The notes under the pieces: model-generated | What the model was told of the DNA's origin: nothing | The model's input: the letters and a program-made list of their open reading frames with translations, nothing else | Databases searched by the model: none | Shown here: in pieces, positions 4,579 through 38,365 of the stretch | How the letters are laid out: each line of letters starts with the position of its first letter | How positions within the stretch are numbered: position 1 is the first letter of the stretch | Made by a program: the position numbers and the translations under genes | Assembly: GCA_049521535.1 (NCBI GenBank) | Contig: JBEKOS010000001.1 | Span: 1-40,858, forward strand | Source of the DNA: Terriglobales bacterium | GTDB taxonomy: Bacteria; Acidobacteriota; Terriglobia; Terriglobales; Acidobacteriaceae | Reading direction: 5' to 3' | DNA: 40,858 nt

Positions 4579-5280
4579 CTATGACTGTTCCTCCAGCATT
4601 GGATTTGCTCGTGACCAATAACGCTGGTACGAGCGGTACACACCATACATCAACGGCAACACGCCGACTGCATACCAACCGATATACATGGATGCCGCGA
4701 GTACAATTGCCGCGAGGCCGGCGCTGAGCACGAAGTAAGGGAAGGTCAGGCTGAAAATCTCGCGCCACACTTTCGAGAATCCCGCCTCGGCAGTCGGATC
4801 CGTTGCCGCTATTACCAGTGAGACCGGAAGCGTATCGCCGAGGAAGAACGCTGCAGTCGAGGCCATAACCAACAGCGCGCCGGTCGCAACTGGAAGGTGA
4901 TGGGCTTGATGGAAGGCCAGTCCGGCAAATCCCGTGGCGTTTAACACATTACAAACGTTGAAAATGATCTGAACGGGCCGCTGACGATGTTTGCCAGGCA
5001 AGCACTGCACCAGAGTGGAAAGTCCGGCTACTGCCAGTGCCTCACCAAAGCTGAGTCCTGCCAGCGCGACCAGTATGAAGGGCAGATTCATGGACATGGA
5101 GCCTTCTAGCCCCGGCAGTGTGACCTTGAATCGCGCAGCTACGCCAGCTATCAAAAGGAGAATGCCGAATCTGGTCGCGTCTGCGGAATGAAATCCCCGC
5201 AGGCCGGCGCCCATCACCGCCAGGCTGCATAACACCACTGCGCCGATTATGAGTGTTGCGAACCGTGAGCTCTTTAGCAT
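4579..5280 (-). CDS. polytopic (~6 TM) membrane protein, unknown family; paralogue of 7714..8439
   Basis: 233 aa. AAGGAGG lies 5 nt upstream of the ATG, and the gene starts 32 nt downstream of subtilase 1. Blocks shared with the paralogue: PGLEGSMS-NLPFIL-ALA-LSFGEA, LSTLVQCLP, RPVQ, AFHQA, WREIF-LTFPYFVLS, YGVYRSY. Confidence 0.8.
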   Translation of the reverse strand: MLKSSRFATLIIGAVVLCSLAVMGAGLRGFHSADATRFGILLLIAGVAARFKVTLPGLEGSMSMNLPFILVALAGLSFGEALAVAGLSTLVQCLPGKHRQRPVQIIFNVCNVLNATGFAGLAFHQAHHLPVATGALLVMASTAAFFLGDTLPVSLVIAATDPTAEAGFSKVWREIFSLTFPYFVLSAGLAAIVLAASMYIGWYAVGVLPLMYGVYRSYQRYWSRANPMLEEQS

Positions 5281-5312: not shown

Positions 5313-7082
5313 TTAGTTTTCGCCGTAGATTGCGACCGTTGAACTCTCGCTATCATCAGTGGTGCTCTTACCCCAGACGACTGACTGCCCCCAGACTGTG
5401 CCGAATCCCTGGCTGGAACTTGTGCCCCAGACAGCAGCATTGCCCCAGAGGACACCGTCGTCGTTGAGCAAAGCTTGGGTGCCCCAAACATTCGTTTCCG
5501 ACCACGCTCCCGAAGTGGACCAGACGGCGGGCGCTTCGGTAACCAGGGTGACGGTCGTACTTCCGTTCTTGGTGCTGTAGTTCACGGGCGGCGACATGGC
5601 GGCGCCGACAGTATTGGGCGCCAATGCACTGCTGTTCAGCGCGGTCTGAATGTCGAGGTATCCGGCGCCTATGGTGAACACATCATATTGTTCGTTGTAA
5701 GTAATTCCGGTTGTCGGATCAGTAGCGGTGCTGTACATCGGAAAGGCCTTGTAGGCGCTGATCATCATCCGCGCCTTCACCTGGTCCGGCGTGAGATTAG
5801 GCTGCTGTTGCAACATCAGCGCGGCCGCGCCGCTGACAACGCCGGTGGCCATGCTGGTGCCACTGAGTTGAAAGTACTCGGATGAGGGCGAACTGCTCCC
5901 GCCGGTCTGGTACAGAGAGTATGGGTCTATATTGGCTGGATAGGTGGCGGACAAATACGTTCCCGCTCCATAAAGCGACGTGATGCGATTGCCCGGCGCT
6001 ACGATATCGGGCTTTGCGATGTGGTCCAGGGGCGATGGTCCTTTGGAACTGTAGCTGGTGATTACGTCATCGGCGCGGCTAAGTGTTCCCATGGTATTCA
6101 TGGCGCCGACGGTAATCACGTAAGGGTCATTGCCCGGCGCATCGATGGTGAGATACCCATTCGTGTTAAATGTGGTATCACGTCCGTCGTTGCCAGCAGC
6201 GACTACCACCACGATTCCAGCTTTCCAGGCCGATTCGACGGCCTGGCAAAGCGGATCCTGCGCATAGCTTTCCTCTACGGGGCGTCCCAGCGATAGGTTG
6301 ATAACTCGAATGTTATAGGTTTTCTTGAGATTGATTGCCTGTGAAATTGCATTGATGACGTCGCTGTCCTGGCCCGCACCGGTTCCATTCAGGACACGGA
6401 GGTTTACCAGGTTTACATTCGGCGCGACCCCATCGAAGGTATAAAAATACTGGCTTCCGGTCGAATCCTTGCCGTCACCCCCGATGATGCCGGCCACGTG
6501 GGTCCCATGACCGTAAGTGTCATTTGCGCTTCCGCCGGCATTGTTAACCAGATTCTGACTGTAAACCACGCGGTTTCCCAGGTCGGCGACGTTCATCACG
6601 CCGCTGTCAATTACGGCCACTCCAATGCCGCTGCCATTAAGGCCCAGGTTCCAGGCGTAACTGGCGCTCACCGCCTCAGGATAGTAATCCAGCGTCAGCG
6701 ACGAACTGGTGCTCATGGACTGTAAATGACGATCGGGCGAAATGTAAGCGACCTCCGGCTCCTTGCTCAGTTCCTCCAGGGTGCTGGCAGGGATCGAGAA
6801 CTTGCCGGCCTTGATGAAATCGAAGCGAGTCCGCAGCGTCCCGCCGTGTGCACGCACCTTGTTAAAATGCCGTTCGGTAGGCGCCGTGATGAATTGGATA
6901 ATCACGTCAACTGGCGCAGCACTCGATAGGTCAAGGTCGCTTGCCAACTTCGCCGACGCGGCTGCCCTCGCGGGCGAAGGGCTGGACGCCGGGTGTGACT
7001 CTGCACCAAAGGCCGGAATGACGGCCGTGGTGATCATCAATACTGTTGCGATTAGCCATGAAAATGTGTTGTTTCTAGTCAT
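5313..7082 (-). CDS. secreted S8 (subtilisin-family) serine peptidase with I9-like propeptide and C-terminal W-G repeat tail (cassette 1)
   Basis: Signal peptide MTRNNTFSWLIATVLMITTAVIPAFG. Catalytic motifs VAVIDSGV, HGTHVAGIIGG, INLSLG and SGTSMATGVVSG. The ATG at 7082 aligns with the paralogue start, and the TTG extension to 7121 is disfavoured. Confidence 0.9.
   Translation of the reverse strand: MTRNNTFSWLIATVLMITTAVIPAFGAESHPASSPSPARAAASAKLASDLDLSSAAPVDVIIQFITAPTERHFNKVRAHGGTLRTRFDFIKAGKFSIPASTLEELSKEPEVAYISPDRHLQSMSTSSSLTLDYYPEAVSASYAWNLGLNGSGIGVAVIDSGVMNVADLGNRVVYSQNLVNNAGGSANDTYGHGTHVAGIIGGDGKDSTGSQYFYTFDGVAPNVNLVNLRVLNGTGAGQDSDVINAISQAINLKKTYNIRVINLSLGRPVEESYAQDPLCQAVESAWKAGIVVVVAAGNDGRDTTFNTNGYLTIDAPGNDPYVITVGAMNTMGTLSRADDVITSYSSKGPSPLDHIAKPDIVAPGNRITSLYGAGTYLSATYPANIDPYSLYQTGGSSSPSSEYFQLSGTSMATGVVSGAAALMLQQQPNLTPDQVKARMMISAYKAFPMYSTATDPTTGITYNEQYDVFTIGAGYLDIQTALNSSALAPNTVGAAMSPPVNYSTKNGSTTVTLVTEAPAVWSTSGAWSETNVWGTQALLNDDGVLWGNAAVWGTSSSQGFGTVWGQSVVWGKSTTDDSESSTVAIYGEN
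5316..5528 (-). repeat. coding repeat: seven W-containing short repeats (five WG, two WS) forming the last ~71 aa of subtilase 1
   Basis: AVWSTSG-AWSETN-VWGTQALLNDDG-VLWGNAA-VWGTSSSQGFGT-VWGQSV-VWGKSTTDDSESSTVAIYGEN. On the + strand this appears as recurring GCCCCA(G/A)A motifs. Confidence 0.7.
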
Positions 7083-7124
7083 CGTCCTCTTCCTCTCGTT
7101 GCGAATTTCCTCGAATGTCAATCT

Positions 7125-7382
7125 TCAGTTCTTGTAGAAGTTGGATATGTCAGCATCCTTTGTCTTCCCTTCGATCTCGGCGGCATGATTTGCAGGAATC
7201 GTGGCCTGCATGAGATGGATCAGAGGCGATGCTCGCCGGGGTGCAGCGGGACGGGCGGTTGGCGTTTCCCTTGCAATACGATGGAAACCGAGCGCATTTT
7301 TCGAGGTTCCTTCCGCCGTTACGACCACCAGGAGGGCTGCTACCAGAATTGTGATCGATAGCACCTTGTTCGTCGTTTTCAT
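7125..7382 (-). CDS. small secreted hypothetical protein (85 aa), first gene of cassette 1
   Basis: GGAGG lies 8 nt upstream of the ATG at 7382. Signal-peptide-like N-terminus MKTTNKVLSITILVAALLVVVTAEG. It ends just upstream of the subtilase RBS. There is no counterpart in cassette 2. Confidence 0.55.
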   Translation of the reverse strand: MKTTNKVLSITILVAALLVVVTAEGTSKNALGFHRIARETPTARPAAPRRASPLIHLMQATIPANHAAEIEGKTKDADISNFYKN

Positions 7383-7408: not shown

Positions 7409-7425
7409 TTGCACGGACAGTGCCA
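7409..7425 (-). promoter_or_regulatory. sigma54-type -24/-12 promoter of cassette 1
   Basis: The minus strand reads TGGCACTGTCCGTGCAA. GG and GC have exactly the consensus spacing of TGGCAC-N5-TTGCW. 14 of 17 nt are identical to the element at 10341..10357. Confidence 0.6.
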
Positions 7426-7440
7426 GATCCAAGCAAGTCA

Positions 7441-7453
7441 TAAGTTGATGATT
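7441..7453 (-). promoter_or_regulatory. IHF-like site between enhancer and sigma54 promoter (cassette 1)
   Basis: The minus strand reads AATCATCAACTTA against the IHF consensus WATCARNNNNTTR (one mismatch). It lies 16 nt upstream of the -24 element. Confidence 0.45.
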
Positions 7454-7517
7454 CTTATTGAAGGTGGCGTTGCAAGGACCCACGACCTGGGACAAATCGT
7501 CTTTAACTTGCGGACAC

Positions 7518-7536
7518 TTGGGACAATCCGTCCCAA
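7518..7536. promoter_or_regulatory. palindromic putative enhancer/operator TTGGGAC-N5-GTCCCAA (cassette 1)
   Basis: Perfect 7+7 inverted repeat TTGGGACAATCCGTCCCAA. An extra half-site TGGGACAA lies at 7488..7495, 31 bp away. The same motif and spacing occur upstream of cassette 2. Confidence 0.5.
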
Positions 7537-7713
7537 CGACTGATTTTGCGATTGCCTGAGTTCCGCCGGTAATAAAACGCGAGAAAGAACTCGCTGCTAA
7601 GTGACGCTTATGAATGCGGATCAAACGGACACAGACAATCATGACGGTGGAGTGTCCCGATGGGCCAACATTGGATGATGAAGGGAACGGAGGGCGGGAG
7701 AGGACAGAAAGTT

Positions 7714-8439
7714 CTAAACGGATGCGTCGGCGGAGCGGGTGTTAACCTGACCAGATTTCTCGATGCCAGCCCAATAAGCTCGATATGACCGATACACTCC
7801 GTACATGATGGGCAACATGCCCAGGGCGCACCATCCAGCGTACTCTGAGGCCGCGATGACGATACGAGCTACACCCGTGCTTAGCACAAAATAGGGAAAC
7901 GTTAAGCCGAAAATCTCGCGCCAGTTACGAGCCATTCCGCGAAACGGTGCCGCTTCCGTTGCCGCAATGACAATTGCGACAGGAATGGTATCGCTTACGA
8001 AGAATAACGCGGCGGCAGGTACCACCATGAGGGATGCGGCGGCGGCCGGCAAGCCGCCTGCCTGATGAAAAGCTACGCCTGCCAATGCGGTGGCGTTGAC
8101 CATGTTGCAGGTATTGAAGAGAAACTGAACCGGCCGCATCTTGTAGCCGTTACGCGGCAAGCATTGCACCAGGGTCGACAAGAGGGTAATGAGAATCGCC
8201 TCTCCAAAACTGAGTTTGGCGAGCGCGATGAGAATGAAGGGAAGGTTCACTGACATGCTTCCCTCGAGGCCCGGCATTGCAATTCTAAGCCGCGAAGCCA
8301 CGAGTGCCATGGTCAGGAGCACGGTAAAGAAGGTGAAGTCCGCGATCCGAAAGCTCCGCAGCCCGCAGCCGAGTGCCACCAGGCTGCCCAGCAAAACCGC
8401 GCCGACAACCCATCCCGTTAATCGTGAGCTCGTCTTCAT
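7714..8439 (-). CDS. polytopic (~6 TM) membrane protein, unknown family; paralogue of 4579..5280
   Basis: 241 aa, downstream of subtilase 2 after a 124-nt gap. It shares long identical blocks with the 233-aa paralogue, for example 23 of 27 residues in (M/L)PGLEGSMS..LSFGEA. Confidence 0.8.
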   Translation of the reverse strand: MKTSSRLTGWVVGAVLLGSLVALGCGLRSFRIADFTFFTVLLTMALVASRLRIAMPGLEGSMSVNLPFILIALAKLSFGEAILITLLSTLVQCLPRNGYKMRPVQFLFNTCNMVNATALAGVAFHQAGGLPAAAASLMVVPAAALFFVSDTIPVAIVIAATEAAPFRGMARNWREIFGLTFPYFVLSTGVARIVIAASEYAGWCALGMLPIMYGVYRSYRAYWAGIEKSGQVNTRSADASV

Positions 8440-8563: not shown

Positions 8564-10291
8564 CTAGTCGCCAGTCAAAACAGCCATGCCGGCATCGGGA
8601 GCGCCGCTCTTGCCCCAAACCACCGACTTGCCCCACAACACGCTGGTCGCTTCCACCGCCATGTTGCCCCACACGGCCTCCGCAGCGCCCCAAAGTTGTG
8701 AGCTGCCGGCGAGCGTAACGGAAGTGCCCCAAACCGAAGAAATTGACCAGGTCGAGGAAGAGCTTCCCAGTACCGAACCAGTAGCGGGAACAACTTGTAC
8801 CGACCCGCTGTAGCTGAAGGTGGCGCTGGGCGACATGGCGCTGCCCACCGTGCTCGGCGCCAGCGCGCTGCTGGAAAGCGCCGCCTGCACATTCAGGTAG
8901 CCCGCGCCTACGGTGAAGATATCGCTTTGCGAATTGTAGGTAAAACCGGCAGAAAAGACGCTGGTGTAGGGCTGCAAGGTCTTGCTGGCGGTCAGCATGA
9001 TCCGGGCTTTCACCTGGTCGGGCGTCAGTGCCGGTGTCTGCTGCAGCATGAGGGCGACAGTGCCGGCCACCGCCGGGGTGGCCATGCTGGTGCCGCTCAG
9101 CATGAAGTAGGCGCTGGAAGCAGCGCTGGTGCCGCTGGTCTGATAAGTCGAGGTGGGCACCACGTTGGTGGGTTCCTCGCCGTACAGCGTGCTGCCGGGA
9201 ACGCACAACGAGATGATCTGATTGCCCGGGGCCACGACGTCCGGCTTCACGATCTGATCGACCACGGTGGGCCCCTTGGAACTGTAGCTGGCGATCTGGT
9301 CATCGGCGGGACTGGGCGTGCCGTTGGTGTTCATAGCGCCGACGGTCAGGACATAAGGATCATTGCCGGGCGCGTCGATCATGCCGTAGCCATTCTCGCC
9401 ATAGGTATTGTCGCGGCCATCATTGCCGGCGGCAACGACCACCACGATCCCGTCCTGCCAGGCGGCTTCGACGGCCTGGCAGAGGGGGTCCTGAGTATAG
9501 CTCTCATACACTCCCCGTCCCACGGAGAGGTTGATGATGCGGATGTTGTAGGTGCTCTTCAGCGCCATGGCCTGATCAATGGCGGCGATGATGGTGCTGT
9601 CGGCGCCGGAGCCGTTCTCGTCGAGCACACGGAGGTTGACGATGTTGACGCTGGGGGCCACGCCTTTAATCGTGAGGCTGTAGCCAGACCCGGAGGACTG
9701 CGCACCATTGCCGCCGAGGATGCCGGCGACATGCGTGCCATGGCCATACAGGTCGGTGGTGGTGCTGGTTTCGCCGGGGACAAAGCTCTGGTTATAGACC
9801 ACGCGTGAACCGAGGTCGGGGTTGGGCAAGATGCCACTGTCGATCACGGCCACGCCAATGCCCGCGCCATTGAAGCCCAGGTTCCAGGCATACGCGGTAT
9901 TGATGGTGTTCTGATAGTTGTCAAAATACTGCGAGGTGTGCGTCTTGGTCTTGCGGTCGGGAGAAATGAAGGCCACCTCAGGATCGTTCGCCAGCTCCGA
10001 CAGGATTCTGGGGGAAACGGTGAACACCGCGCCCTTTACGCTGTGGAACTGAGATTTCAGCTTGCCGCCGCGGCTGAGTACTTTGTCGATATGGTGCTGG
10101 CTGGGCTTGGCGGTGAACTGCACAATCACGTCCACGGGCTCGGATTTGGTGGTGTCGAGGTCCAACGCAATTTTGCCGTTGTTGGCCCGGGATATCTGTC
10201 CCCAGAGCGCGCTGGCATTCGCCAAGGGCGAAATGCTCAGCACCAGGACTAAAGTTGCGATCCATCCGAATCTCTGATTTCTACTCATCAT
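8564..10291 (-). CDS. secreted S8 (subtilisin-family) serine peptidase with I9-like propeptide and C-terminal W-G repeat tail (cassette 2)
   Basis: Signal peptide MMSRNQRFGWIATLVLVLSISPLANA. Catalytic motifs VAVIDSGI, HGTHVAGILGG, INLSVG and SGTSMATPAVAG. GAAGGAGAG RBS. Long identical blocks with subtilase 1, for example QDPLCQAVE.AW..GIVVVVAAGNDGRD. Confidence 0.9.
   Translation of the reverse strand: MMSRNQRFGWIATLVLVLSISPLANASALWGQISRANNGKIALDLDTTKSEPVDVIVQFTAKPSQHHIDKVLSRGGKLKSQFHSVKGAVFTVSPRILSELANDPEVAFISPDRKTKTHTSQYFDNYQNTINTAYAWNLGFNGAGIGVAVIDSGILPNPDLGSRVVYNQSFVPGETSTTTDLYGHGTHVAGILGGNGAQSSGSGYSLTIKGVAPSVNIVNLRVLDENGSGADSTIIAAIDQAMALKSTYNIRIINLSVGRGVYESYTQDPLCQAVEAAWQDGIVVVVAAGNDGRDNTYGENGYGMIDAPGNDPYVLTVGAMNTNGTPSPADDQIASYSSKGPTVVDQIVKPDVVAPGNQIISLCVPGSTLYGEEPTNVVPTSTYQTSGTSAASSAYFMLSGTSMATPAVAGTVALMLQQTPALTPDQVKARIMLTASKTLQPYTSVFSAGFTYNSQSDIFTVGAGYLNVQAALSSSALAPSTVGSAMSPSATFSYSGSVQVVPATGSVLGSSSSTWSISSVWGTSVTLAGSSQLWGAAEAVWGNMAVEATSVLWGKSVVWGKSGAPDAGMAVLTGD
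8567..8752 (-). repeat. coding repeat: W-G/W-S short repeats forming the last ~62 aa of subtilase 2
   Basis: TWSISS-VWGTSVTLAGSSQ-LWGAAEA-VWGNMAVEATS-VLWGKSV-VWGKSGAPDAGMAVLTGD. Confidence 0.7.
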
Positions 10292-10340: not shown

Positions 10341-10357
10341 TTGCACGGTCATGGCCA
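10341..10357 (-). promoter_or_regulatory. sigma54-type -24/-12 promoter of cassette 2
   Basis: The minus strand reads TGGCCATGACCGTGCAA with GG/GC at consensus spacing. It lies ~50 nt upstream of the subtilase 2 ATG. Confidence 0.55.
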
Positions 10358-10373: not shown

Positions 10374-10386
10374 TAAGTTGTTGATT
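10374..10386 (-). promoter_or_regulatory. IHF-like site (cassette 2)
   Basis: The minus strand reads AATCAACAACTTA, a full match to WATCARNNNNTTR. It lies 17 nt upstream of the -24 element, the same placement as in cassette 1. Confidence 0.5.
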
Positions 10387-10418: not shown

Positions 10419-10437
10419 TTGGGACAAGATGTCCCAC
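10419..10437. promoter_or_regulatory. palindromic putative enhancer/operator TTGGGAC-N5-GTCCCAC (cassette 2)
   Basis: TTGGGACAAGATGTCCCAC, with an extra half-site TGGGAC at 10388..10393, 32 bp away. Confidence 0.5.
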
Positions 10438-10712
10438 AGAATGAGACGAACGAGACAGCTTTTCCCATCGAATTCGACGTTTTCGCTGTTTGCTTGCGCG
10501 GGTCGTCGTACGGAAGCCCTCGCCGGGGCCGGGCGGGCCTGGGGCAATTGGCCGAGGCTTGTAGATGAAGCCGTTACTTCAGTACCTGGTCCTGGTGCTG
10601 TCCTTTGGTAATTAATCAGAAACCGTGAGCGCACGCTAGCATGAACCAGACAGTGTATAGGTGTTGGGCCTGGCTGGATTACAGGCCCGGTGTCTTGGGA
10701 GACAAATAGGCG

Positions 10713-12467
10713 ATGCGATTACCCACGCGAATTCCGATTCTCTATTTAATGTTGGGAATACTGGTTTTGGTCAGCGTTGTTCCGATGTATTTCTATGCGA
10801 GTTGGGTTGTCAGCACCAATCGTGAGGCTCTGAAGGTTAACGAGCAGTTACTGGAAAATGAAATCACCCGCTCGTTGCGCGAGGATATTGGTCAGCGCCA
10901 GAGCAGCCTGCATACCGTGCTTGGTAACTTTAGCGCCGCGGTGGGTATTGCGAGTGGCGGCAACCTGAATGGCGACAAATTAAACTCCAAGGAAATGCAA
11001 GCGCTGTTGGAGAAATTCGTGGTTTCGTCCAGCGATCTCGCCTATGTCGCCCTCCTCAACCCTGACGCCAAGTTTATTTCTGCGGGGCGCGTGCAACCTG
11101 ATGGTTTTATGCAGAAAGAGGTCGAACGCGCCTTCAAAGCCGCACGCGACGGGCGGACCTATGAGGGAGAACCGCTCTCGCTAGGCTCGGGACAGAACAC
11201 TCGTACGCTGCTTCTGGTAAGCGCCCCCATTGTTGTGAACGGCAGCTTTGTTGGGAGTATTGCCGCGTTTGAAGACCTGCAATTTCTAGTTGATCGCCTG
11301 CATGCCAATCAGGACGGTGGCTTAACGGCTTATGTGGTGGACCGGCAGGGGCGGCTGGTTGCGGGGGCGTCATCAGGTTATGCGACCGGACAGGACATGA
11401 CCAGCAGCGAGATTGTAAAGAACTTTGTCGATCAGGCTGGAAAAGTGCAATTTGCTTCGACGATGGAGTTCAATGCCACGGTGGGCAAGCAAAAAAACCG
11501 CATGTTAGGAACATACTCTGTCGTGCCGGCCCTCGGCTGGGCGGTGGTCGCCCAAAAGTCGTTGCAGGATGCGTATCAGGGCGTTTATCACATGCAGTGG
11601 TTGGCGCGTGAACTAGCCCTGCTGACCATTCTGATCAGCATGATCATTTCGGTATGGTCGGCCAGAAGCATAACCAAGCCTCTGGATGAACTAATTGAAG
11701 GGACTCACGCGATTGCCCGTGGTGATTTCTCGCAACGAGTAAACCTAAAGAGCCGCACTGAAATTGCCGACCTTGCGCATACCTTCAATCGGATGACCGA
11801 GAGTTTGCAGAAATTTGTCGCCGACCTGAAGCACGCTGCCGAGGAAAATCGCGCGCTATTCTTCAGTTCCATCCAGATGCTCGCTGGTGCGGTCGACGAA
11901 AAAGATCCCTATACGCGCGGCCACTCCGATCGCGTCACGCGCTATTCCGTCCTGCTCGCGCAGGAGCTGGGATTGAGTCAGCAGGAAATTGAGACCGTTC
12001 GCGTGGCAGCACAACTTCATGATGTGGGAAAGATCGGTATCGAGGATCGCGTACTCAAGAAGCCCGGTGCGCTTTCGGCTGAGGAGTTTGAACTTATGAA
12101 AGCGCACACTACGAAAGGCGCTAATATCCTGCGGCCGGTTCAGCAACTGAAGGAGATGATCCCCGGAATCGAGCTTCATCACGAAACTCTCGATGGAAAC
12201 GGTTATCCTTACGGGTTGCAAGGCGACGAAATCCCGTTGCTCGCCCGCATTATCACCGTGGCCGACGTCTTCGATGCAATGACAACTCATCGGCCTTACC
12301 AAACGGCCATGGATCCTGACGATGTTGTGCGGAGGATCAACGCCAAGGCGGACATTAAGTTCGATCCACACGTGGTCCGGGCGTTGATGTCTGTGTTTGA
12401 CCGCGGTGAACTGCTCGAAGACGGCTTCTATGCGGAGAGAGAAGTGCCAGCGGGCGTAGGCGTTTAG
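10713..12467 (+). CDS. membrane-bound sensor HD-GYP phosphodiesterase (Cache-like periplasmic domain, HAMP, HD-GYP)
   Basis: 584 aa. Two TM helices flank a ~270-aa extracytoplasmic domain, followed by HAMP (ITKPLDELIEGTHAIARGDFSQRV). HD-GYP motifs are intact: HSDRV, LHDVGKIGI, HHETLDGNGYPYG. Confidence 0.9.
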   Translation: MRLPTRIPILYLMLGILVLVSVVPMYFYASWVVSTNREALKVNEQLLENEITRSLREDIGQRQSSLHTVLGNFSAAVGIASGGNLNGDKLNSKEMQALLEKFVVSSSDLAYVALLNPDAKFISAGRVQPDGFMQKEVERAFKAARDGRTYEGEPLSLGSGQNTRTLLLVSAPIVVNGSFVGSIAAFEDLQFLVDRLHANQDGGLTAYVVDRQGRLVAGASSGYATGQDMTSSEIVKNFVDQAGKVQFASTMEFNATVGKQKNRMLGTYSVVPALGWAVVAQKSLQDAYQGVYHMQWLARELALLTILISMIISVWSARSITKPLDELIEGTHAIARGDFSQRVNLKSRTEIADLAHTFNRMTESLQKFVADLKHAAEENRALFFSSIQMLAGAVDEKDPYTRGHSDRVTRYSVLLAQELGLSQQEIETVRVAAQLHDVGKIGIEDRVLKKPGALSAEEFELMKAHTTKGANILRPVQQLKEMIPGIELHHETLDGNGYPYGLQGDEIPLLARIITVADVFDAMTTHRPYQTAMDPDDVVRRINAKADIKFDPHVVRALMSVFDRGELLEDGFYAEREVPAGVGV

Positions 12468-13065: not shown

Positions 13066-14061
13066 ATGGCGAAAATCCTCACATTGTTTGGCAGCCTGGA
13101 AGAACAGGAAAAACAAAAACAGCCGCTCGACAAGAAGGGCGGCCTGTTTGAGCGTATGAAGCAGGCGGTCACTCGCACTCGTGAGAACCTGAGCGAGCGA
13201 ATTGACGAGGTGGTCTCCGTCATTCCATTGGGCAAGGAGATCGACCGCAGCACTCTCGACATGCTTGAGGCTACGCTTATTGCAGCGGATCTCGGCTCCA
13301 AAACCACGCAGGAAGTGCTGAACAAGTTGCGCGAAAGGGCCGACCGAAAGCAGATTCAGGATGTGGATGAACTCAAACGGCTGCTGAAGCATGAGCTTCT
13401 GGAGATTCTTTCCCGCGCGAATACGCCGCCGATTGCTGCTGAAGAAGGTGAACCCGAAGTGATCCTAGTAGTCGGGGTGAATGGCACCGGCAAGACCACA
13501 AGCATTGGCAAGCTGGCACAACGATTGCACGAACAGGGGAAGACCGTAGTGCTGGCGGCTGCCGATACTTTTCGCGCTGCCGCCATCGAGCAACTTGAGA
13601 TCTGGGGACAGCGGACCGGCGCCGAAGTAATCAAGACCAAGCCCGGTGGCGACCCTTCGGCGGTACTATTTGATGCCCTTCAGGCGGCCAGAGCGCGGAA
13701 TCTCGACTATGTGATAGTCGATACCGCCGGACGTTTGCATACCAAAACCAGTCTGATGGATGAACTTGCGAAAATAAGGCGAACGGCGCAACGCTTCATC
13801 CCGCGCGCCCCTCACGAAACCTTGCTGGTGATGGACGCCACTACCGGGCAGAATGGCCTACAACAGGCGAAATTGTTTACGGAATCAGCCGGGGTCACAG
13901 GAATTGTACTGACCAAACTAGACGGCACCGCCAAAGGAGGCGTCGTGGTAGCTATCTCGCGCGAGCTGGGGGTGCCGGTGCGTTTCGTTGGAGTGGGCGA
14001 AAAAGCTGGCGATCTGCTGCCATTTGATCCGGTAGAATTTGTGGATTCGTTGTTTACATAG
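13066..14061 (+). CDS. ftsY: signal recognition particle receptor FtsY
   Basis: SRP-GTPase motifs [21 protein letters not shown] and [10 protein letters not shown], with a short acidic N-terminus. Confidence 0.95.
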
Positions 14062-25978: not shown

Positions 25979-26371
25979 CTATCCTGCCTTTTCAATTGGC
26001 CCTTCATCTGTGGCGGGCGGGAGTTCAGTCTGTCCCAGACAGAGCTTGATTTTCTCGATCAAAGAAGGAAAGAGCTCGTCTTTTGCCACGCAGATCTTGA
26101 CGTGCCGCCCTCCGTCGACGGGGCCGTATCCGGTGACGAGGATAATCGGTACCTGGGGATTCTTGATATGAATTCTGCGAGCTAATTCGAGGCCGTCCAT
26201 GCCATCCATTTTCCAATCCGTCACCAGGATGTCAAATTTCTCCCGGTCGAATTTCTCGAGTGCCTCCGCAGCATTGTAGGCACTCACCGCGCGATAGCCT
26301 TGCGATCTCAGTATTGCGCAACTCAAGCGCGCCAATACCTCGTGATCGTCTACAAAAAGAACGGTTTTCAT
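25979..26371 (-). CDS. single-domain response regulator (CheY-like receiver)
   Basis: FVDDH acidic pocket, phospho-acceptor context ILVTDWKMDG, ILVTGY. There is no output domain. Confidence 0.85.
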   Translation of the reverse strand: MKTVLFVDDHEVLARLSCAILRSQGYRAVSAYNAAEALEKFDREKFDILVTDWKMDGMDGLELARRIHIKNPQVPIILVTGYGPVDGGRHVKICVAKDELFPSLIEKIKLCLGQTELPPATDEGPIEKAG

Positions 26372-29862: not shown

Positions 29863-32256
29863 TCAATAAATCAGATATTTGGCCCTGATCTTTCGGAATT
29901 CTTCGAGTGCGTCCATCCAGTCTTCAGCAATCCGGCGTGGATCCCGGCCATCCCTAAGCGCGTCAAAACTTGCCTGGTTCACCAGCAGTAAGTCCAGTTT
30001 TTCCATCTTGTATTCCGCCGGATAAAGTGTGTGCAGGGCCGATGCCAATTCAAGGCCCAACTCGGGTGCGTCGAGCACGTTGCGGTCTACCACGATGATG
30101 TTGACCCCGCCGCAGTTTTCCCTCGCATATTGATTGGCATTCGGCATGAAGCTTCTCGGTACAAAGCGCACGCCGGAAATCGCGCGGGCGTTTAGATACT
30201 TCGCCAGTCCCAGCGAGTTAATCCAGGGTGCGCCGACCAATTCGAAAGGCGTGTCAGTGCCCCGGCCGACCGAGACGTTGGTTCCTTCAATGAGTCCTAC
30301 ACCGGAATAGAGCGTCGCCGCAGTCAGGCTGCGTATGTTGGGCGAGGGATCGATCCATCTCATGCCGGCAGAGTCATACCAATCGCCGCGCATCCAGCCC
30401 TGCATGGGGACAACTGTCAAATTAGCGTGGATGCCACGTTCCTCGTTGTACAACTTCGCCAGTTCCCCGATGGTCATGCCGTGACGCAATGGGACTTGAC
30501 CGTAGTTGACGAAGCTCTCGTGGTTCGGGTCGGGCATCGTCCCTTGCAAGTACGCGCCGCCAATCGGGTTCGGCCGGTCAAGCACAAAGATCTCCTTGCC
30601 CGACTTGGCCGCCGCTTCCAGGAAGTAGCCAAGCGTGGATTCATAGGTATAAAAGCGAACGCCTATATCCTGAATGTCAAAGACAATTGCGTCCAGATCC
30701 TCGAGGTTTTCTGAATTTGGGTGGCGTTTGGCATCCGTGTCGCCGTAAACACTAATGATTGGCGTTCCTGTCGCCCGATCGTGTGAATTTGCGATATCGG
30801 CTGTGTCAGCGGTCCCGGCGATGCCGTGTTCCGGGCTGAAGATGACGGCTACTTCGACGCCGGGTGCTTGTGACAGGACGTCGATGGTGCGGTGGCCCAT
30901 CGCATCCACTCCTGTGTGATTTGTTACCAAACCAACCCGGACCTTAGTTCCGGAGGTTGGATGAAGGTCACTGAAGTTGTGGGTTTCGAGCACATCAATG
31001 CCGGATTTGACCTCGCCGTTACGGAAGTGAACGCGGCGTGCGGCGAACAGAGTTTCGTTGTATCCAGTGATGCGCGCCAATCGAAGTTCGTCGTTTTCAC
31101 TCGAGGTGAGATCAAGGTCGCTTACCACCGCTGTGGCGATGCGTGCCCGCAAAGACGCCAGAGATTTACCGGCATGAGGATGGGCCGCATTAGTCAGAAT
31201 GATGATGCTGGTATGGGTAACAGGGTCAATCCAAAGGGAAGTGCCGGTGAAACCCGTATGCCCGAAGGAGCCCACGGGCAGCATCTCACCCCTATTGCTG
31301 GCAAATGGCGAATCGATATCCCAACCGAGGCCACGCAAACTAGCCGCCGTCGGTGGTTGCTGTGGCGTGGACATCTTCTCTACGGTTTGCTCGCTCAGCA
31401 CCTTGAATCCGCTGAGCATGTCCTGGGCGAACCGGGAAAGATCGTCTGCTGTGGAGAACAGGCCTGCGTGTCCCGCAACGCCGCCCATGCGCCGTGCCGT
31501 GGGATCGTGAACTACGCCCCGCAGCATGCGATGGTGCTCGTCGTATTCCGTTGGCGCAATGCGAGGACGCCATCCGGCGGGAGGGTTGAATTGCGATTCC
31601 TTCATCTCCAGTGGTCCAAAGACTTCTTTCGCGGCAAAATCATTCAGCGACATACCGGAAGCCTTCTCGACGATGAATCCCAGGGCTTCAAAATCAAGGT
31701 CACTGTAGTGGAAAGTCGAACCCGGGGGCAACAGAGGTTTTGACTCCATAATCATACGGTAGGCAGTTTCACGGCCTTCCCAAGGACTCGTCAGATCGAG
31801 GTCATCAGGAAGGTCTGAGAAATGGGTTAGCAAGTCGCGAAGTGTGATGTCACTCTTTCCGTTCTTGCCGAATTCAGGCAGATACGTCGTTACCGGATCG
31901 TTTAGCCGAACTTTGCCTTCCTCCACCAGTTTCATGATCAAAGTAGCGGTCACTACGCATTTGGTAAGGGAGGCAAGGTCAAAGATGGTATCCACCGTCA
32001 TGCGCTCGCGCGTGGGCTCGAGCGAACGCCAGCCGAACGCCTTTCGATAGACGGTCCTGCCGTTGTGCGTGATTAGAACGACCCCGCCAGGAATTGTTCC
32101 TTTTTCGACCGCCTGCTGCATTATTTCGTCGATGTTCTTGAAGTTTGTTCCGGAAGTATCTGCTGGCGGCCCCGGTTGAGCAATTACCGCCGGAAGAGTC
32201 AGGGAGGCAAGAGCGATAAACAGGACGAACCGATTAGCAGGTGTTCTCCCAAGCAC
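29863..32256 (-). CDS. secreted fusion protein: beta-lactamase-fold serine hydrolase (PF00144-type) + DUF1343/NamZ-type exo-beta-N-acetylmuramidase
   Basis: 797 aa with a GTG start and a signal peptide. SxxK (ASLTK), YSD and HTG motifs sit in the N-terminal half. The C-terminal half starts at GIDVLETHNF...VGLVTNHTGVD, typical of DUF1343. Confidence 0.85.
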   Translation of the reverse strand: MLGRTPANRFVLFIALASLTLPAVIAQPGPPADTSGTNFKNIDEIMQQAVEKGTIPGGVVLITHNGRTVYRKAFGWRSLEPTRERMTVDTIFDLASLTKCVVTATLIMKLVEEGKVRLNDPVTTYLPEFGKNGKSDITLRDLLTHFSDLPDDLDLTSPWEGRETAYRMIMESKPLLPPGSTFHYSDLDFEALGFIVEKASGMSLNDFAAKEVFGPLEMKESQFNPPAGWRPRIAPTEYDEHHRMLRGVVHDPTARRMGGVAGHAGLFSTADDLSRFAQDMLSGFKVLSEQTVEKMSTPQQPPTAASLRGLGWDIDSPFASNRGEMLPVGSFGHTGFTGTSLWIDPVTHTSIIILTNAAHPHAGKSLASLRARIATAVVSDLDLTSSENDELRLARITGYNETLFAARRVHFRNGEVKSGIDVLETHNFSDLHPTSGTKVRVGLVTNHTGVDAMGHRTIDVLSQAPGVEVAVIFSPEHGIAGTADTADIANSHDRATGTPIISVYGDTDAKRHPNSENLEDLDAIVFDIQDIGVRFYTYESTLGYFLEAAAKSGKEIFVLDRPNPIGGAYLQGTMPDPNHESFVNYGQVPLRHGMTIGELAKLYNEERGIHANLTVVPMQGWMRGDWYDSAGMRWIDPSPNIRSLTAATLYSGVGLIEGTNVSVGRGTDTPFELVGAPWINSLGLAKYLNARAISGVRFVPRSFMPNANQYARENCGGVNIIVVDRNVLDAPELGLELASALHTLYPAEYKMEKLDLLLVNQASFDALRDGRDPRRIAEDWMDALEEFRKIRAKYLIY

Positions 32257-35471: not shown

Positions 35472-35975
35472 TCACTCTTGAGAAGGAATCGTCCCAGTCA
35501 GATGCAGCAGTGCGCGGTCGATGTGCTCTTCATGCCGGGCACGCATTGCGTCCGCCTTCGTGCGCTGTTCCGGCGTGAGTACCTGGTTATAGACCTGCGA
35601 CATCAGCTTCTCTTTTTCGACCATCATTTGCGCCATGAGCGGGGCGTTTTGGTTCGCGAGCTCGCGAACTTTGGCTTCGGGAAAGTTGCCGTTAGCCGTC
35701 AACTGCAGCATCTGCATGCGGTTGGCGGTGAGCTGGGCCATAAGCGGTTTCATAGTTTCTTTTTCCGCCTTCCACATGGTCTTAATTTGTGCCTGCTGTG
35801 CGTAGGTGAGCTGGAGCTCCTTCACGAGAAAACCCATGAACTGATGGTGGTGTCCCATGCCGAAGCCGCCCATGTCCTGACCGCCCGTGTTCTGCGCAGC
35901 TTGTGCAATGCCAATCGCCGCGCCGGCGGTCAAAAGCGCTATCACCAATGCCGGCTTCATATACCTAAAACGCAT
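35472..35975 (-). CDS. periplasmic Spy/CpxP-family (LTxxQ) protein
   Basis: AAGGAG lies 9 nt upstream of the ATG at 35975. Signal peptide MRFRYMKPALVIALLTAGAAIGIAQA. Two LTxxQ motifs (LTYAQ, LTPEQ). Confidence 0.8.
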   Translation of the reverse strand: MRFRYMKPALVIALLTAGAAIGIAQAAQNTGGQDMGGFGMGHHHQFMGFLVKELQLTYAQQAQIKTMWKAEKETMKPLMAQLTANRMQMLQLTANGNFPEAKVRELANQNAPLMAQMMVEKEKLMSQVYNQVLTPEQRTKADAMRARHEEHIDRALLHLTGTIPSQE

Positions 35976-36057
35976 ATTCGAATGCTCCTTGCTTTGCACC
36001 CTTAAAGATCTAAACACAAGGGCTCGGTGTTGGCGGTAAAGAGTGGGTCAAGAGCGG

Positions 36058-36072
36058 GTAAAAATTTGTAAA
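36058..36072. promoter_or_regulatory. CpxR-type box GTAAA-N5-GTAAA in the divergent intergenic region
   Basis: GTAAAAATTTGTAAA. A third GTAAA lies at 36036-36040, 22 nt away. Confidence 0.5.
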
Positions 36073-36185
36073 TGCTAATGAATCTCGATTGACCCAGCCC
36101 TGTTACCAGAATAGGGTTCAGTGTAGCATCCGAATATCCGGCGATGGCCGGTAAGCGCTTACACGCTAGGGAAGGCTGGTTACAT

Positions 36186-36923
36186 ATGGATCGTGTGTTA
36201 ATAGTCGATGACGACATCGATCTTTGCGAATTGGTGACGGAGTATCTGCTTCCGGAAGAATTCCAGGTGGAGGCGGTTCATACGGGTCCGGCAGGCTTGG
36301 AACGCGCTCTTTCCGGCGAGCACGCGCTCATGGTGCTCGATGTGATGCTGCCGGGGATGAATGGATTGGATGTACTGCGTAAGCTGCGTGCGCACTCGCG
36401 CATTCCGGTGTTGATTTTGACGGCTCGTGGAGACGATGTCGACCGCATCGTGGGGCTTGAAATCGGCGCCGATGACTATCTGGCCAAGCCGTTTAACCCG
36501 CGTGAGTTACTGGCACGCATTCGGGCAATTCTGCGGCGCACGCAAGGCGTTGGTTCTGGAGCCACCGTTGGCGAGACAATTGTGGTTGCAGATGTGGAAC
36601 TCGATCCTGGCGGCCGAACAGTACGACGGTCCGGGGAACTGATCGAATTCACCTCCGTGGAGTTCTCGCTTCTGGAGGCGCTGATGAGTTCTGCCGGTCA
36701 AGTGGTCACTCGTGAGCAGATTGCGCATGACGTGCTCGGCCGCCAGTTCTTTCCCTACGACCGCAGCATTGATATGCATGTGAGCAAGCTGCGGCGAAAA
36801 CTTGGAGACGCGCCCCGGGGTGGCGACCGCATCAAAACCATCCGTGGCGTCGGCTATGTTTACGCCCGGCCGAGCGAGCCGGATATGTCGGCCGCGCGGA
36901 TGGCCGGGACGGAGCGAATATAA
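36186..36923 (+). CDS. OmpR-family response regulator, CpxR-like
   Basis: MDRVLIVDDD..., LTARG, GADDYLAKPFNPRELLARIRAILRR (closely resembles E. coli CpxR), and a winged-helix C-terminus. ATG at 36186. Confidence 0.9.
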   Translation: MDRVLIVDDDIDLCELVTEYLLPEEFQVEAVHTGPAGLERALSGEHALMVLDVMLPGMNGLDVLRKLRAHSRIPVLILTARGDDVDRIVGLEIGADDYLAKPFNPRELLARIRAILRRTQGVGSGATVGETIVVADVELDPGGRTVRRSGELIEFTSVEFSLLEALMSSAGQVVTREQIAHDVLGRQFFPYDRSIDMHVSKLRRKLGDAPRGGDRIKTIRGVGYVYARPSEPDMSAARMAGTERI

Positions 36924-38365
36924 TGCGCAGCCTCTTTCTCAGGGTGTTTCTCTCGTTCTGGGTTGCGATGGTGCTGGTCGGGCTGGCCATGGTGGTCACT
37001 TTCTCGATGCAGCGTGATGTCGTGGTGAATCGCTGGCGCACAGGCGTAGGGAGTGCCATCGGAGCATATGCGCAAGGCGCGGCGGATGAATTTGAGCAGC
37101 ACGGCCCTGATAGCTTGGTTCATTTTCTTCAAGGGCTGGAAAGCATCGGGGGTGGATCGCGCGCGGCGTTGCTGGACGCACAGGGAAATCCGGTCATAAC
37201 GCCACTCGGCTCTCACAGTCCACGAAACCTGGTGGACAAGGCGTTGCGTAGTGGCCAGCTTGAATTTCGCGATAACAGCGACTCCAGCCCCGAGCCATAC
37301 GCTGCACAACGGGTCACCAGCCGGTCAGGACATACTTATGTGCTGATATTACACAGAGTACCCGGCTTTTATAGTTATCACCTTAGTGCCAGCATGGAAG
37401 TTCTGCGCTGGACAATGGCAATAGTCATTTCTGGTCTGATTTGCCTTTTGCTTACTCGTCACTTGACCATGCCCATTCTTCGCCTGGGAATGGCTGCCCG
37501 CCAGCTCGCCGCTGGCGACTTGGGCGCGCGTGCGCCTGTCCCCGGAAATCGAAGTGATGAAATCGGGGTCATGGTGCAGGATTTCAATCGTATGGCAGAG
37601 CGCATTGAAGGCCTCGTCAATAGTCAGAGACAACTTATCAGCGATATTTCCCACGAACTCCGTTCGCCTCTGGCGCGTTTGAGTGTAGCGCTTGGCCTGG
37701 CGCGCCAACGTGCCGGCACAGGGGCTGCCGCACCCCTCGACCGTATTGAACGCGAAGCGGATCAATTGAACGAACTCATCGGCAAACTGCTGACTTTGGC
37801 TCGCCTGGAAACGGCCGCGCTGCCACCGGAACAAAGCTCGGTGGACTTGCAGGAGTTGCTGATGCAAATTGTTGACGACGCGGCTTTCGAAGCGCAGGAG
37901 CGGGGCTGCGATGTTCGCTTGCAGCCTCTGGTGAGCGGTACTAGAAGCTTTCCCGTGCTCGGCAGCGCCGATTTACTTCGCAGTGCGCTGGAAAACGTAA
38001 TTCGGAACGCAGTGCGCTACACCGCGCCCGGAACCGCAGTAGCGATTACGCTTGCGTGCGATGGTCGGTCCGTGGTGGTGCACGTGCGGGATCATGGGCC
38101 CGGCGTGCCGGAGGTGGAACTCGCTAATTTGTTTCGCCCCTTCTACCGCCTGGCGGACGCGAGAGACAGGCAAACAGGGGGAACCGGCCTGGGATTGACG
38201 ATCGCGGAACGCGCGGTGCGTTTACATGGCGGGAGCATTCGCGCCAGCACACTGAAGGGAAACAAAGGCCTTGACGTGGAAATCATCCTTCCGGCCGCAA
38301 GTGAACAAGATGCGAACCGGCAAGGCGCTGAAGTCAGCGGTTTGGAATCAGAAGTCAGGAACTAA
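36923..38365 (+). CDS. sensor histidine kinase, CpxA-like (periplasmic domain, HAMP, HisKA, HATPase)
   Basis: 1-nt overlap with the regulator stop. H-box SHELRSPL, G-box GTGLGLTIA. Confidence 0.9.
   Translation: MRSLFLRVFLSFWVAMVLVGLAMVVTFSMQRDVVVNRWRTGVGSAIGAYAQGAADEFEQHGPDSLVHFLQGLESIGGGSRAALLDAQGNPVITPLGSHSPRNLVDKALRSGQLEFRDNSDSSPEPYAAQRVTSRSGHTYVLILHRVPGFYSYHLSASMEVLRWTMAIVISGLICLLLTRHLTMPILRLGMAARQLAAGDLGARAPVPGNRSDEIGVMVQDFNRMAERIEGLVNSQRQLISDISHELRSPLARLSVALGLARQRAGTGAAAPLDRIEREADQLNELIGKLLTLARLETAALPPEQSSVDLQELLMQIVDDAAFEAQERGCDVRLQPLVSGTRSFPVLGSADLLRSALENVIRNAVRYTAPGTAVAITLACDGRSVVVHVRDHGPGVPEVELANLFRPFYRLADARDRQTGGTGLGLTIAERAVRLHGGSIRASTLKGNKGLDVEIILPAASEQDANRQGAEVSGLESEVRN

Follow-up and report, generated by a model that had tools for sequence, protein, structure and literature searches.

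Putative sigma-54 promoters with tandem enhancer sites upstream of two acidobacterial S8 peptidase cassettes, and a candidate family of activators

Two paralogous gene cassettes stand in tandem on the minus strand of a 40,858-nucleotide stretch of contig JBEKOS010000001.1 from a Terriglobales bacterium (this whole stretch is called the window below). Each cassette encodes an S8 (subtilisin-family) peptidase and a MASE9-like membrane protein. From which promoter is each cassette transcribed, and which protein activates it? An earlier note, made from the sequence alone, had described a sigma-54 promoter with a site for integration host factor (IHF) and a palindromic enhancer upstream of cassette 1. 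Hardly any sigma-54 regulon has been explored in Acidobacteriota, a phylum that is dominant in soil but has few cultured members. We consider it probable that each cassette has a sigma-54 promoter of its own, equipped with an IHF site and tandem enhancer sites, and that both are activated by an enhancer-binding protein (EBP) of a family with a GAFSGA loop and, usually, a PilZ domain. The overall architecture is already known; the enhancer motif and its regulon are new.

Promoter and enhancer elements of the two cassettes

Read on the minus strand, TGGCACTGTCCGTGCAA (7425..7409) upstream of cassette 1 has its GG (7424-7423) and its GC (7412-7411) separated by exactly 10 nt, in agreement with the earlier note, and the -24/-12 element that it contains deviates from the consensus at one position. 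The IHF-type site was likewise found with the single mismatch ascribed to it, but its distance from the -24 box is 15 nt rather than 16. Further upstream, the perfect palindrome TTGGGAC-N5-GTCCCAA spans 7518..7536 as described. The centre of this distal site (7527) lies 103 bp from the first G of the GG and at about -128 relative to the predicted transcription start site (TSS). The half-site reported at 7488-7495 is present as well, but it forms the better-matching half of a second full site, which is degenerate. The centre of this second site (7496) lies 72 bp from the GG and at about -97, and the site aligns with the perfect one of cassette 2. What had been read as a palindrome and a half-site is therefore a tandem pair of 17-bp sites about three helical turns apart (Table 1).

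The same elements recur in the same order upstream of cassette 2, as had been claimed, and at identical distances: each cassette has 31 bp between the centres of its two sites, and 72 and 103 bp from these centres to the GG, counted to its first G. The intervening DNA cannot be aligned between the two upstream regions, although elements and spacing are retained. Plain alignment with MAFFT mis-registers the promoter-proximal parts of these regions, and these were re-registered by hand on the elements. The named -24/-12 element is the sole TGG..TGC match in each upstream region, and no sigma-70-like promoter was found in either intergenic region. The exact 12-base palindrome TGGGAC-N5-GTCCCA occurs twice in the window, against about 0.003 occurrences expected by our own calculation. 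With a position weight matrix (PWM) of the site, only the four cassette sites score 10 bits or more in the 40.9 kb.

As a separate observation, a perfect sigma-54 consensus, TGGCACAACGATTGCA, is located at 13514..13529 (plus strand) inside the ftsY open reading frame (ORF; 13066..14061); it has the same orientation as ftsY, and ribD lies downstream of it. It is the only match without a mismatch in the window (about 0.04 expected), no enhancer-PWM match lies nearby, and it may be either an intragenic sigma-54 site or a chance occurrence.

Conservation in orthologous peptidase loci

The S8 peptidases of the cassettes belong to a very large acidobacterial family. We examined a sample of 80 orthologous S8 peptidase loci (47-55% identity) from Terriglobales, Bryobacterales, Sulfotelmatobacter, Angelobacter and Paludibaculum; the genome collection searched held no peptidase locus closer than about 55% identity. 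The seed TGGGAC-N5-GTCCCA, with up to two mismatches, matched 40 times in the regions preceding the peptidase genes (51.9 kb in all), where 1.95 matches are expected (20-fold), whereas 32 matches in the other 899 kb of the loci correspond to chance (33.8 expected). Seed matches occurred in 32/80 loci. The enrichment upstream of orthologous cassettes that the earlier note had proposed to look for is thus present, at fixed positions and in both Terriglobales and Bryobacterales. The motif itself held up as a conserved seed, but is better described by a 17-bp consensus of the form 7-3-7, TGGGACA-N3-TGTCCCA, with a nearly invariant GACA. When the PWM was applied, 72 of 93 matches fell within 600 bp upstream of a peptidase start, and most of the others lie upstream of a second peptidase paralogue or adjoin an EBP gene or a gene for a MASE9-HD-GYP protein.

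The spacing of the elements is also retained. Enhancer sites pair at 28-33 bp or at 90-95 bp in the orthologues, and TGG-N9-TGC follows the site centres at 67-76 bp in 36 cases and at 97-105 bp in 28, with about one case expected per range. The promoter consensus of the orthologues is TTGG-N8-C-N-TGCA. A perfect IHF consensus (in either orientation) was found within the 40 bp upstream of the GG in 13/31 promoters, against 0.06 expected. Consistent with the original description of a promoter, an IHF site and an enhancer, the -24/-12 element in the orthologues is in register with the palindrome and the IHF consensus lies between them. The anatomy of these sequences and its conservation are direct observations, as is the genomic linkage of regulator and motif reported below. 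Because the three-part architecture of putative sigma-54 promoter, enhancer and bending site is conserved across orders, we regard the sigma-54 reading as well supported.

The closest peptidase homologues (72% and 67% identity) show no promoter on their contigs; one gene lies directly behind another peptidase gene and the other has 46 bp upstream. In the former arrangement, seen in the closest relative available (L163, 1..2359; 72% to the cassette 2 peptidase), the stop codon of one S8 gene directly adjoins the start codon of the next. Tandem S8 peptidase genes also occur in L010, L027, L052, L058 and L153, so tandem peptidase operons are common in this family.

The candidate activator, its possible link to c-di-GMP and alternative readings

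No EBP gene was found in the window, in line with the earlier note: no ORF bears a GAF[TS]GA motif and no sizeable ORF contains a Sigma54_activat domain. No rpoN gene was found in the window either. The activator had been supposed to act in trans and had been left without a name; the first part agrees with these results, and for the second there is now a candidate, an AAA+-HTH_8 family that is linked to the motif elsewhere. EBPs of this one family are encoded within 6 kb of the peptidase in 18/80 orthologous loci, often directly downstream or upstream. They have the AAA+ domain at the N-terminus, no receiver domain, a Fis-type helix-turn-helix (HTH) domain and, in most full-length members, a C-terminal PilZ domain (Pfam: Sigma54_activat, AAA_lid_14, HTH_8 and PilZ). 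E-values range from 1e-64 to 1e-67 for PF00158 and from 1e-14 to 1e-18 for PF02954, and PF07238 (PilZ) scores 34-57 bits against a cut-off of 22.5; among the matches listed, a precomputed PilZ match is present in 120/120 homologues. Members of 320-345 amino acids lack PilZ, and some others add an N-terminal PAS domain. None of the named EBP equivalogs (NtrC, NifA, NorR, PspF, AtoC, ZraR and PrsR among them) was reached, as all NCBIfam scores remained below the cut-offs (NorR, 333 against 476; PspF, 276 against 443.55 bits). In the databases the family is unnamed and carries the generic label 'sigma 54-interacting transcriptional regulator'.

A second, independent sample of 80 metagenome loci was fetched via the EBP (L083-L162). 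With few exceptions, the EBP gene in these loci diverges from a gene for a MASE9-HD-GYP fusion (e.g. L098, 4511..8320), and the motif was again observed in intergenic DNA beside EBP, S8 or MASE9-HD-GYP genes. Sigma-54 elements in the expected register are aimed at S8 genes in nine cases and at MASE9-HD-GYP genes in nine. A subgroup of about 600 amino acids (PAS-AAA+-HTH-PilZ; the N-terminal extension is PAS by Pfam in L068) has neither motif nor peptidase nearby.

Some further features of these loci were noted. Some of them (L141, L144, L148, L152, L153, L156, L161 and L162) carry a short, PilZ-less EBP, and there the motif with TGG-N9-TGC 71-105 bp away is aimed at MASE9-HD-GYP and not at a peptidase; the regulon in such loci therefore includes the phosphodiesterase itself. 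Two EBP genes of the family stand in tandem, the PilZ-bearing one followed by a short one, in L094 (110..2882), L118 (6965..9411) and L158, which hints at hetero-oligomeric activators or at a recent duplication. L103 and L121 have two MASE9-HD-GYP genes each.

The recognition helix and the motif vary together. EBPs with the HTH type ISRRTLSRKL co-occur with T-G-G-GACA half-sites, in which G has a frequency of 0.86 at position 2, whereas the type IS[S/T]RTLRRKL co-occurs with n-n-G-GACA, where G falls to about 0.3 at position 2 and reaches about 0.9 at position 3. Since both cassettes in the window carry TGGGACA, their activator is predicted to be of the ISRRTLSRKL type and to be encoded elsewhere in the genome. 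It most likely belongs to the unnamed acidobacterial family with an AAA+ (GAFSGA) domain, HTH_8 and, usually, a C-terminal PilZ domain, and binding of TGGGACA-N3-TGTCCCA by this EBP is plausible from their co-location and from the co-variation of HTH and motif.

Promoter and enhancer might be real and yet be served by an EBP from outside the GAFSGA/HTH_8(/PilZ) family, the neighbourhood of genes then reflecting a shared pathway. In the window, no EBP gene comes within 25 kb of the cassettes, some loci with a linked EBP show no motif, and the same is true of the surroundings of many EBP genes of the PAS-bearing subgroup, all of which would fit such a different regulator. On the other hand, the motif adjoins the EBP gene even where there is no peptidase (L144, L147, L149, L152 and L156), the residues of the HTH vary together with the outer positions of the motif, and no other regulator gene recurs in these loci. 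We therefore consider a different EBP unlikely.

Much less probable still is that an ordinary repressor or activator uses the palindromes as operators at a sigma-70 or extracytoplasmic function (ECF) sigma factor promoter, with GG-N10-GC being incidental. The sigma-54 pattern alone is indeed not enriched in the window, and a similar inverted repeat (GGGACA..TGTCC) serves an unrelated type of regulator in streptococci. However, TGG-N9-TGC recurs at its two fixed distances in dozens of loci, the IHF consensus between sites and promoter is conserved, no sigma-70-like promoter was found in either region, and helically phased sites about 100 bp upstream have the geometry of enhancers and not of operators. 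The streptococcal look-alike, known from papers on ComRS/comX competence, was judged coincidental. That the upstream resemblance is a residue of tandem cassette duplication, or the palindrome an RNA hairpin or terminator, might be suggested by the paralogy of the cassettes (55% amino-acid identity of the peptidases) and by the 7-bp stem that the palindrome could form, but we regard it as the most improbable reading, as the flanks have diverged beyond alignment around retained elements and spacing, the orthologue data contradict it, the sequence itself is kept in distant orders with nearly invariant positions 4-7 (as expected of a protein-binding site rather than of a stem that keeps its pairing by compensatory changes), no T-run follows the palindrome, and the cassette 2 palindrome lies upstream of the predicted TSS, beside a divergent gene. 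An explanation by a riboswitch or another RNA was dropped, as no Rfam family matches anywhere in the window.

Under the preferred reading, that of sigma-54 promoters activated by the GAFSGA family, each S8 and MASE9-like gene pair would be transcribed from its own RpoN promoter of the form TGG-N9-[C/G]TGCA, with two 17-bp activator sites on the same face of the DNA, centred about 72 and 103 bp upstream of the GG, and an IHF-type bending site closer in, at about 30 bp. An EBP encoded outside the window would bind the tandem sites as dimers and then oligomerize; IHF would loop it onto the closed complex, and ATP hydrolysis would open the promoter. The activity of the regulator might be set by cyclic di-GMP (c-di-GMP) or by contact with an HD-GYP phosphodiesterase module, and if it responds in this way, protease secretion would be an output of c-di-GMP. 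From the sequences we infer the RpoN dependence, the TSS, the identity of the binding protein and the effect of c-di-GMP.

Several observations weigh against this reading. Taken singly, neither the sigma-54 pattern (30 matches against 24.6 in shuffles) nor the IHF pattern (34 against 36) is enriched in the window, and the significance therefore rests on co-occurrence, fixed spacing and conservation in other genomes. There, the PWM motif was detected in 46/80 orthologous loci, about half having no detectable site, and some EBP-linked loci (L014, L030 and L060) lack the motif. The loci come from related metagenome-assembled genomes (L023 and L063 are near-identical), so that the counts are not independent and overstate the number of events, and the PWM was trained on upstream sites, a circularity from which only the seed-based test is free. 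Both rpoN and the EBP are absent from the window, and their presence in the source organism is an assumption. The EBP loop is invariantly GAFSGA in 11/11 aligned members, with Ser replacing the Thr of the canonical GAFTGA. The PilZ domain has Q-Q-R-Y-F-R, that is RxxR instead of the RxxxR of c-di-GMP binders, with a single invariant Arg, the last; in short family members the PilZ domain is missing altogether. Part of the domain is also similar to PilZ chains that the PDB lists as 'Type IV fimbriae assembly protein', a type that is not known to bind c-di-GMP.

Aligned to MotI/YpfA (5vx6), the first Arg of the EBP PilZ domain is shifted by one residue. The (D/N)xSxxG motif is intact, with N362, S364 and G367 invariant (alignment A3). 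A link to c-di-GMP is suggested by the PilZ domain, by the constant pairing of EBP and HD-GYP genes and by the MASE9 proteins in the regulon. Control of the candidate regulator by c-di-GMP is plausible, and it is the weakest step of the model owing to the RxxR sequence and to the short members without PilZ. Direct protein-protein coupling of the EBP to the HD-GYP module is an alternative to nucleotide sensing. More tentatively, and with considerable doubt, one could imagine a widespread acidobacterial c-di-GMP circuit in which the PilZ-EBP binds TGGGACA-N3-TGTCCCA, senses c-di-GMP or its HD-GYP partner and activates S8 and MASE9 genes, or elsewhere MASE9-HD-GYP genes, which would give a feedback loop between protease and c-di-GMP. 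If this were true, the candidate activator would be the first EBP of the PilZ type; literature searches for PilZ-fused EBPs, for acidobacterial sigma-54 promoters or enhancers and for the motif string returned nothing relevant.

The outcome is a concrete enhancer motif, a promoter grammar, a testable candidate activator, and a regulon that is small and dedicated, made up of secreted subtilases and of MASE9/HD-GYP proteins of signalling. Should the PilZ domain of the activator be functional, c-di-GMP would be coupled to sigma-54 transcription in a new way, and a second messenger would be linked to extracellular proteolysis in soil bacteria. Should it not be, the finding would still provide a clean rule for annotation, transferable to hundreds of loci in Acidobacteriota.

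Comparison with known systems and other features of the window

Classical sigma-54 promoters of the NtrC/NifA type with an IHF site include glnAp2, nifH and Pu. The cassette promoters resemble them in the GG-N10-GC element at -24/-12, in the IHF-consensus site between promoter and enhancer, and in the tandem 17-bp sites (6-N5-6, or 7-3-7) about 100-130 bp upstream and whole helical turns apart. They differ in the sequence of these sites, TGGGACA-N3-TGTCCCA, which is distinct from the established NtrC (TGCACCA-N3-TGGTGCA) and NifA (TGT-N10-ACA) consensuses; the half-site is TGGGAC(A), and the NtrC half-sites (TGCACC-N5-GGTGCA) are not found in the cassette sites. The -12 box is [C/G]TGCA instead of the classical TTGCW, the targets are a secreted S8 peptidase and a MASE9 membrane protein, and the host belongs to the Acidobacteriota.

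On the side of the activator, FleQ and VpsR are c-di-GMP-responsive EBPs that sense the nucleotide without a PilZ domain (PMC12564702, PMC7288161). The candidate EBP is like them an AAA+ activator of the sigma-54 type and is genomically paired with HD-GYP phosphodiesterase genes. It differs in lacking a receiver domain, in the usually present separate PilZ domain at the C-terminus, after the HTH, and in the atypical RxxxR motif. PspF is an EBP without a regulatory N-terminal domain. The candidate likewise has its AAA+ domain near the N-terminus, followed by the HTH, and the members of 320-345 amino acids have exactly the PspF layout; the family parts from PspF in having GAFSGA and not GAFTGA, in scoring below the equivalog cut-off, and in the domains that many members add, PilZ at the C-terminus in most and PAS at the N-terminus in some. 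A PspA-like partner of the candidate EBP was not seen.

MASE9-HD-GYP phosphodiesterases provide the third comparison, MASE9 being understood as described in bioRxiv 10.1101/2021.11.05.467447. Both cassette membrane proteins match MASE9, and most orthologous loci fuse MASE9 to HD-GYP in a gene that is divergent from the peptidase or the EBP gene. In the window, by contrast, MASE9 stands alone without an output domain, is presumed to be co-transcribed with the peptidase, and HD-GYP is found on a dCache-HAMP protein instead, whose gene fills the slot held by the MASE9-HD-GYP fusion gene in most orthologous loci. A second sigma-54 element, aimed at this divergent gene, was looked for and not found.

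Table 1. Promoter elements, genes and other features of the two cassettes (positions in the window; PWM scores in bits)
Feature	Position	Strand	Sequence	Remarks
Cassette 1, distal enhancer site (upstream activating sequence)	7535..7519	-	TGGGACGGATTGTCCCA	Perfect 6-N5-6 palindrome; 19.7 bits
Cassette 1, proximal enhancer site	7504..7488	-	AAAGACGATTTGTCCCA	One half perfect, the other degenerate; AAAGAC-N5-GTCCCA; 12.5 bits
Cassette 1, IHF-consensus site	7453..7441	-	AATCATCAACTTA	One mismatch to WATCAR-N4-TTR; about -54..-42 from predicted TSS
Cassette 1, putative sigma-54 -24/-12 element	7425..7410	-	TGGCACTGTCCGTGCA	One mismatch to TGGCAC-N5-TTGCW; predicted TSS about 7399
Cassette 1, first ORF	7382..7125	-		85 amino acids; signal-peptide-like N-terminus; GGAGG ribosome-binding site 8 nt upstream; ATG at 7382
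Cassette 1, S8 (subtilisin-family) peptidase	7121..5313	-		Domain match
Cassette 1, stand-alone MASE9-like membrane protein	5280..4579	-		Domain match
Cassette 2, distal enhancer site	10467..10451	-	TGGGAAAAGCTGTCTCG	Degenerate, TGGGAA-N5-GTCTCG; centre 10459, 103 bp from GG; 15.5 bits
Cassette 2, proximal enhancer site	10436..10420	-	TGGGACATCTTGTCCCA	TGGGAC-N5-GTCCCA, perfect 7-3-7 palindrome; centre 10428, 72 bp from GG; 21.7 bits
Cassette 2, IHF-consensus site	10386..10374	-	AATCAACAACTTA	Perfect WATCAR-N4-TTR
Cassette 2, putative sigma-54 -24/-12 element	10357..10342	-	TGGCCATGACCGTGCA	Three mismatches, TGG..TGCA kept; predicted TSS about 10331
Cassette 2, S8 peptidase	10291..8564	-		ATG at 10291
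Cassette 2, stand-alone MASE9-like membrane protein	8439..7714	-		Domain match
Terminator-like hairpin with T-run	7594..7579	-		Between cassette 2 end and cassette 1 enhancer
dCache-HAMP-HD-GYP gene	10713..12467	+		Predicted c-di-GMP phosphodiesterase; divergent from cassette 2

The terminator-like hairpin between the cassettes implies that cassette 1 is a transcription unit of its own. The real start of its peptidase is likely to be the ATG at 7082. For the 85-amino-acid ORF behind promoter 1, neither Pfam nor NCBIfam gives a match, and the gaps between promoter and peptidase in the orthologous loci contain no counterpart; as it is not conserved there, it is uncertain whether it encodes a lineage-specific small secreted protein or is no gene. 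At the end of both S8 peptidases, short repeats with invariant Trp-Gly pairs (..VWGxS..LWG..) follow one another in a run. This run is conserved throughout the acidobacterial S8 family (alignment A2), matches no Pfam domain, and may serve in surface anchoring or substrate binding.

Apart from the cassettes, the window encodes on its minus strand (29863..32256) a 797-amino-acid protein in which a beta-lactamase-family domain is fused with both NamZ (exo-beta-N-acetylmuramidase) domains, an unusual fusion related to cell-wall recycling. At 35472..38365, a gene for an LTXXQ/Metal_resist (CpxP-like) periplasmic protein is divergent from genes for an OmpR-type response regulator and a HAMP histidine kinase; together they form an envelope-stress module resembling Cpx. 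A lone receiver-domain protein is encoded at 25979..26371 (minus strand), upstream of groES/groEL.

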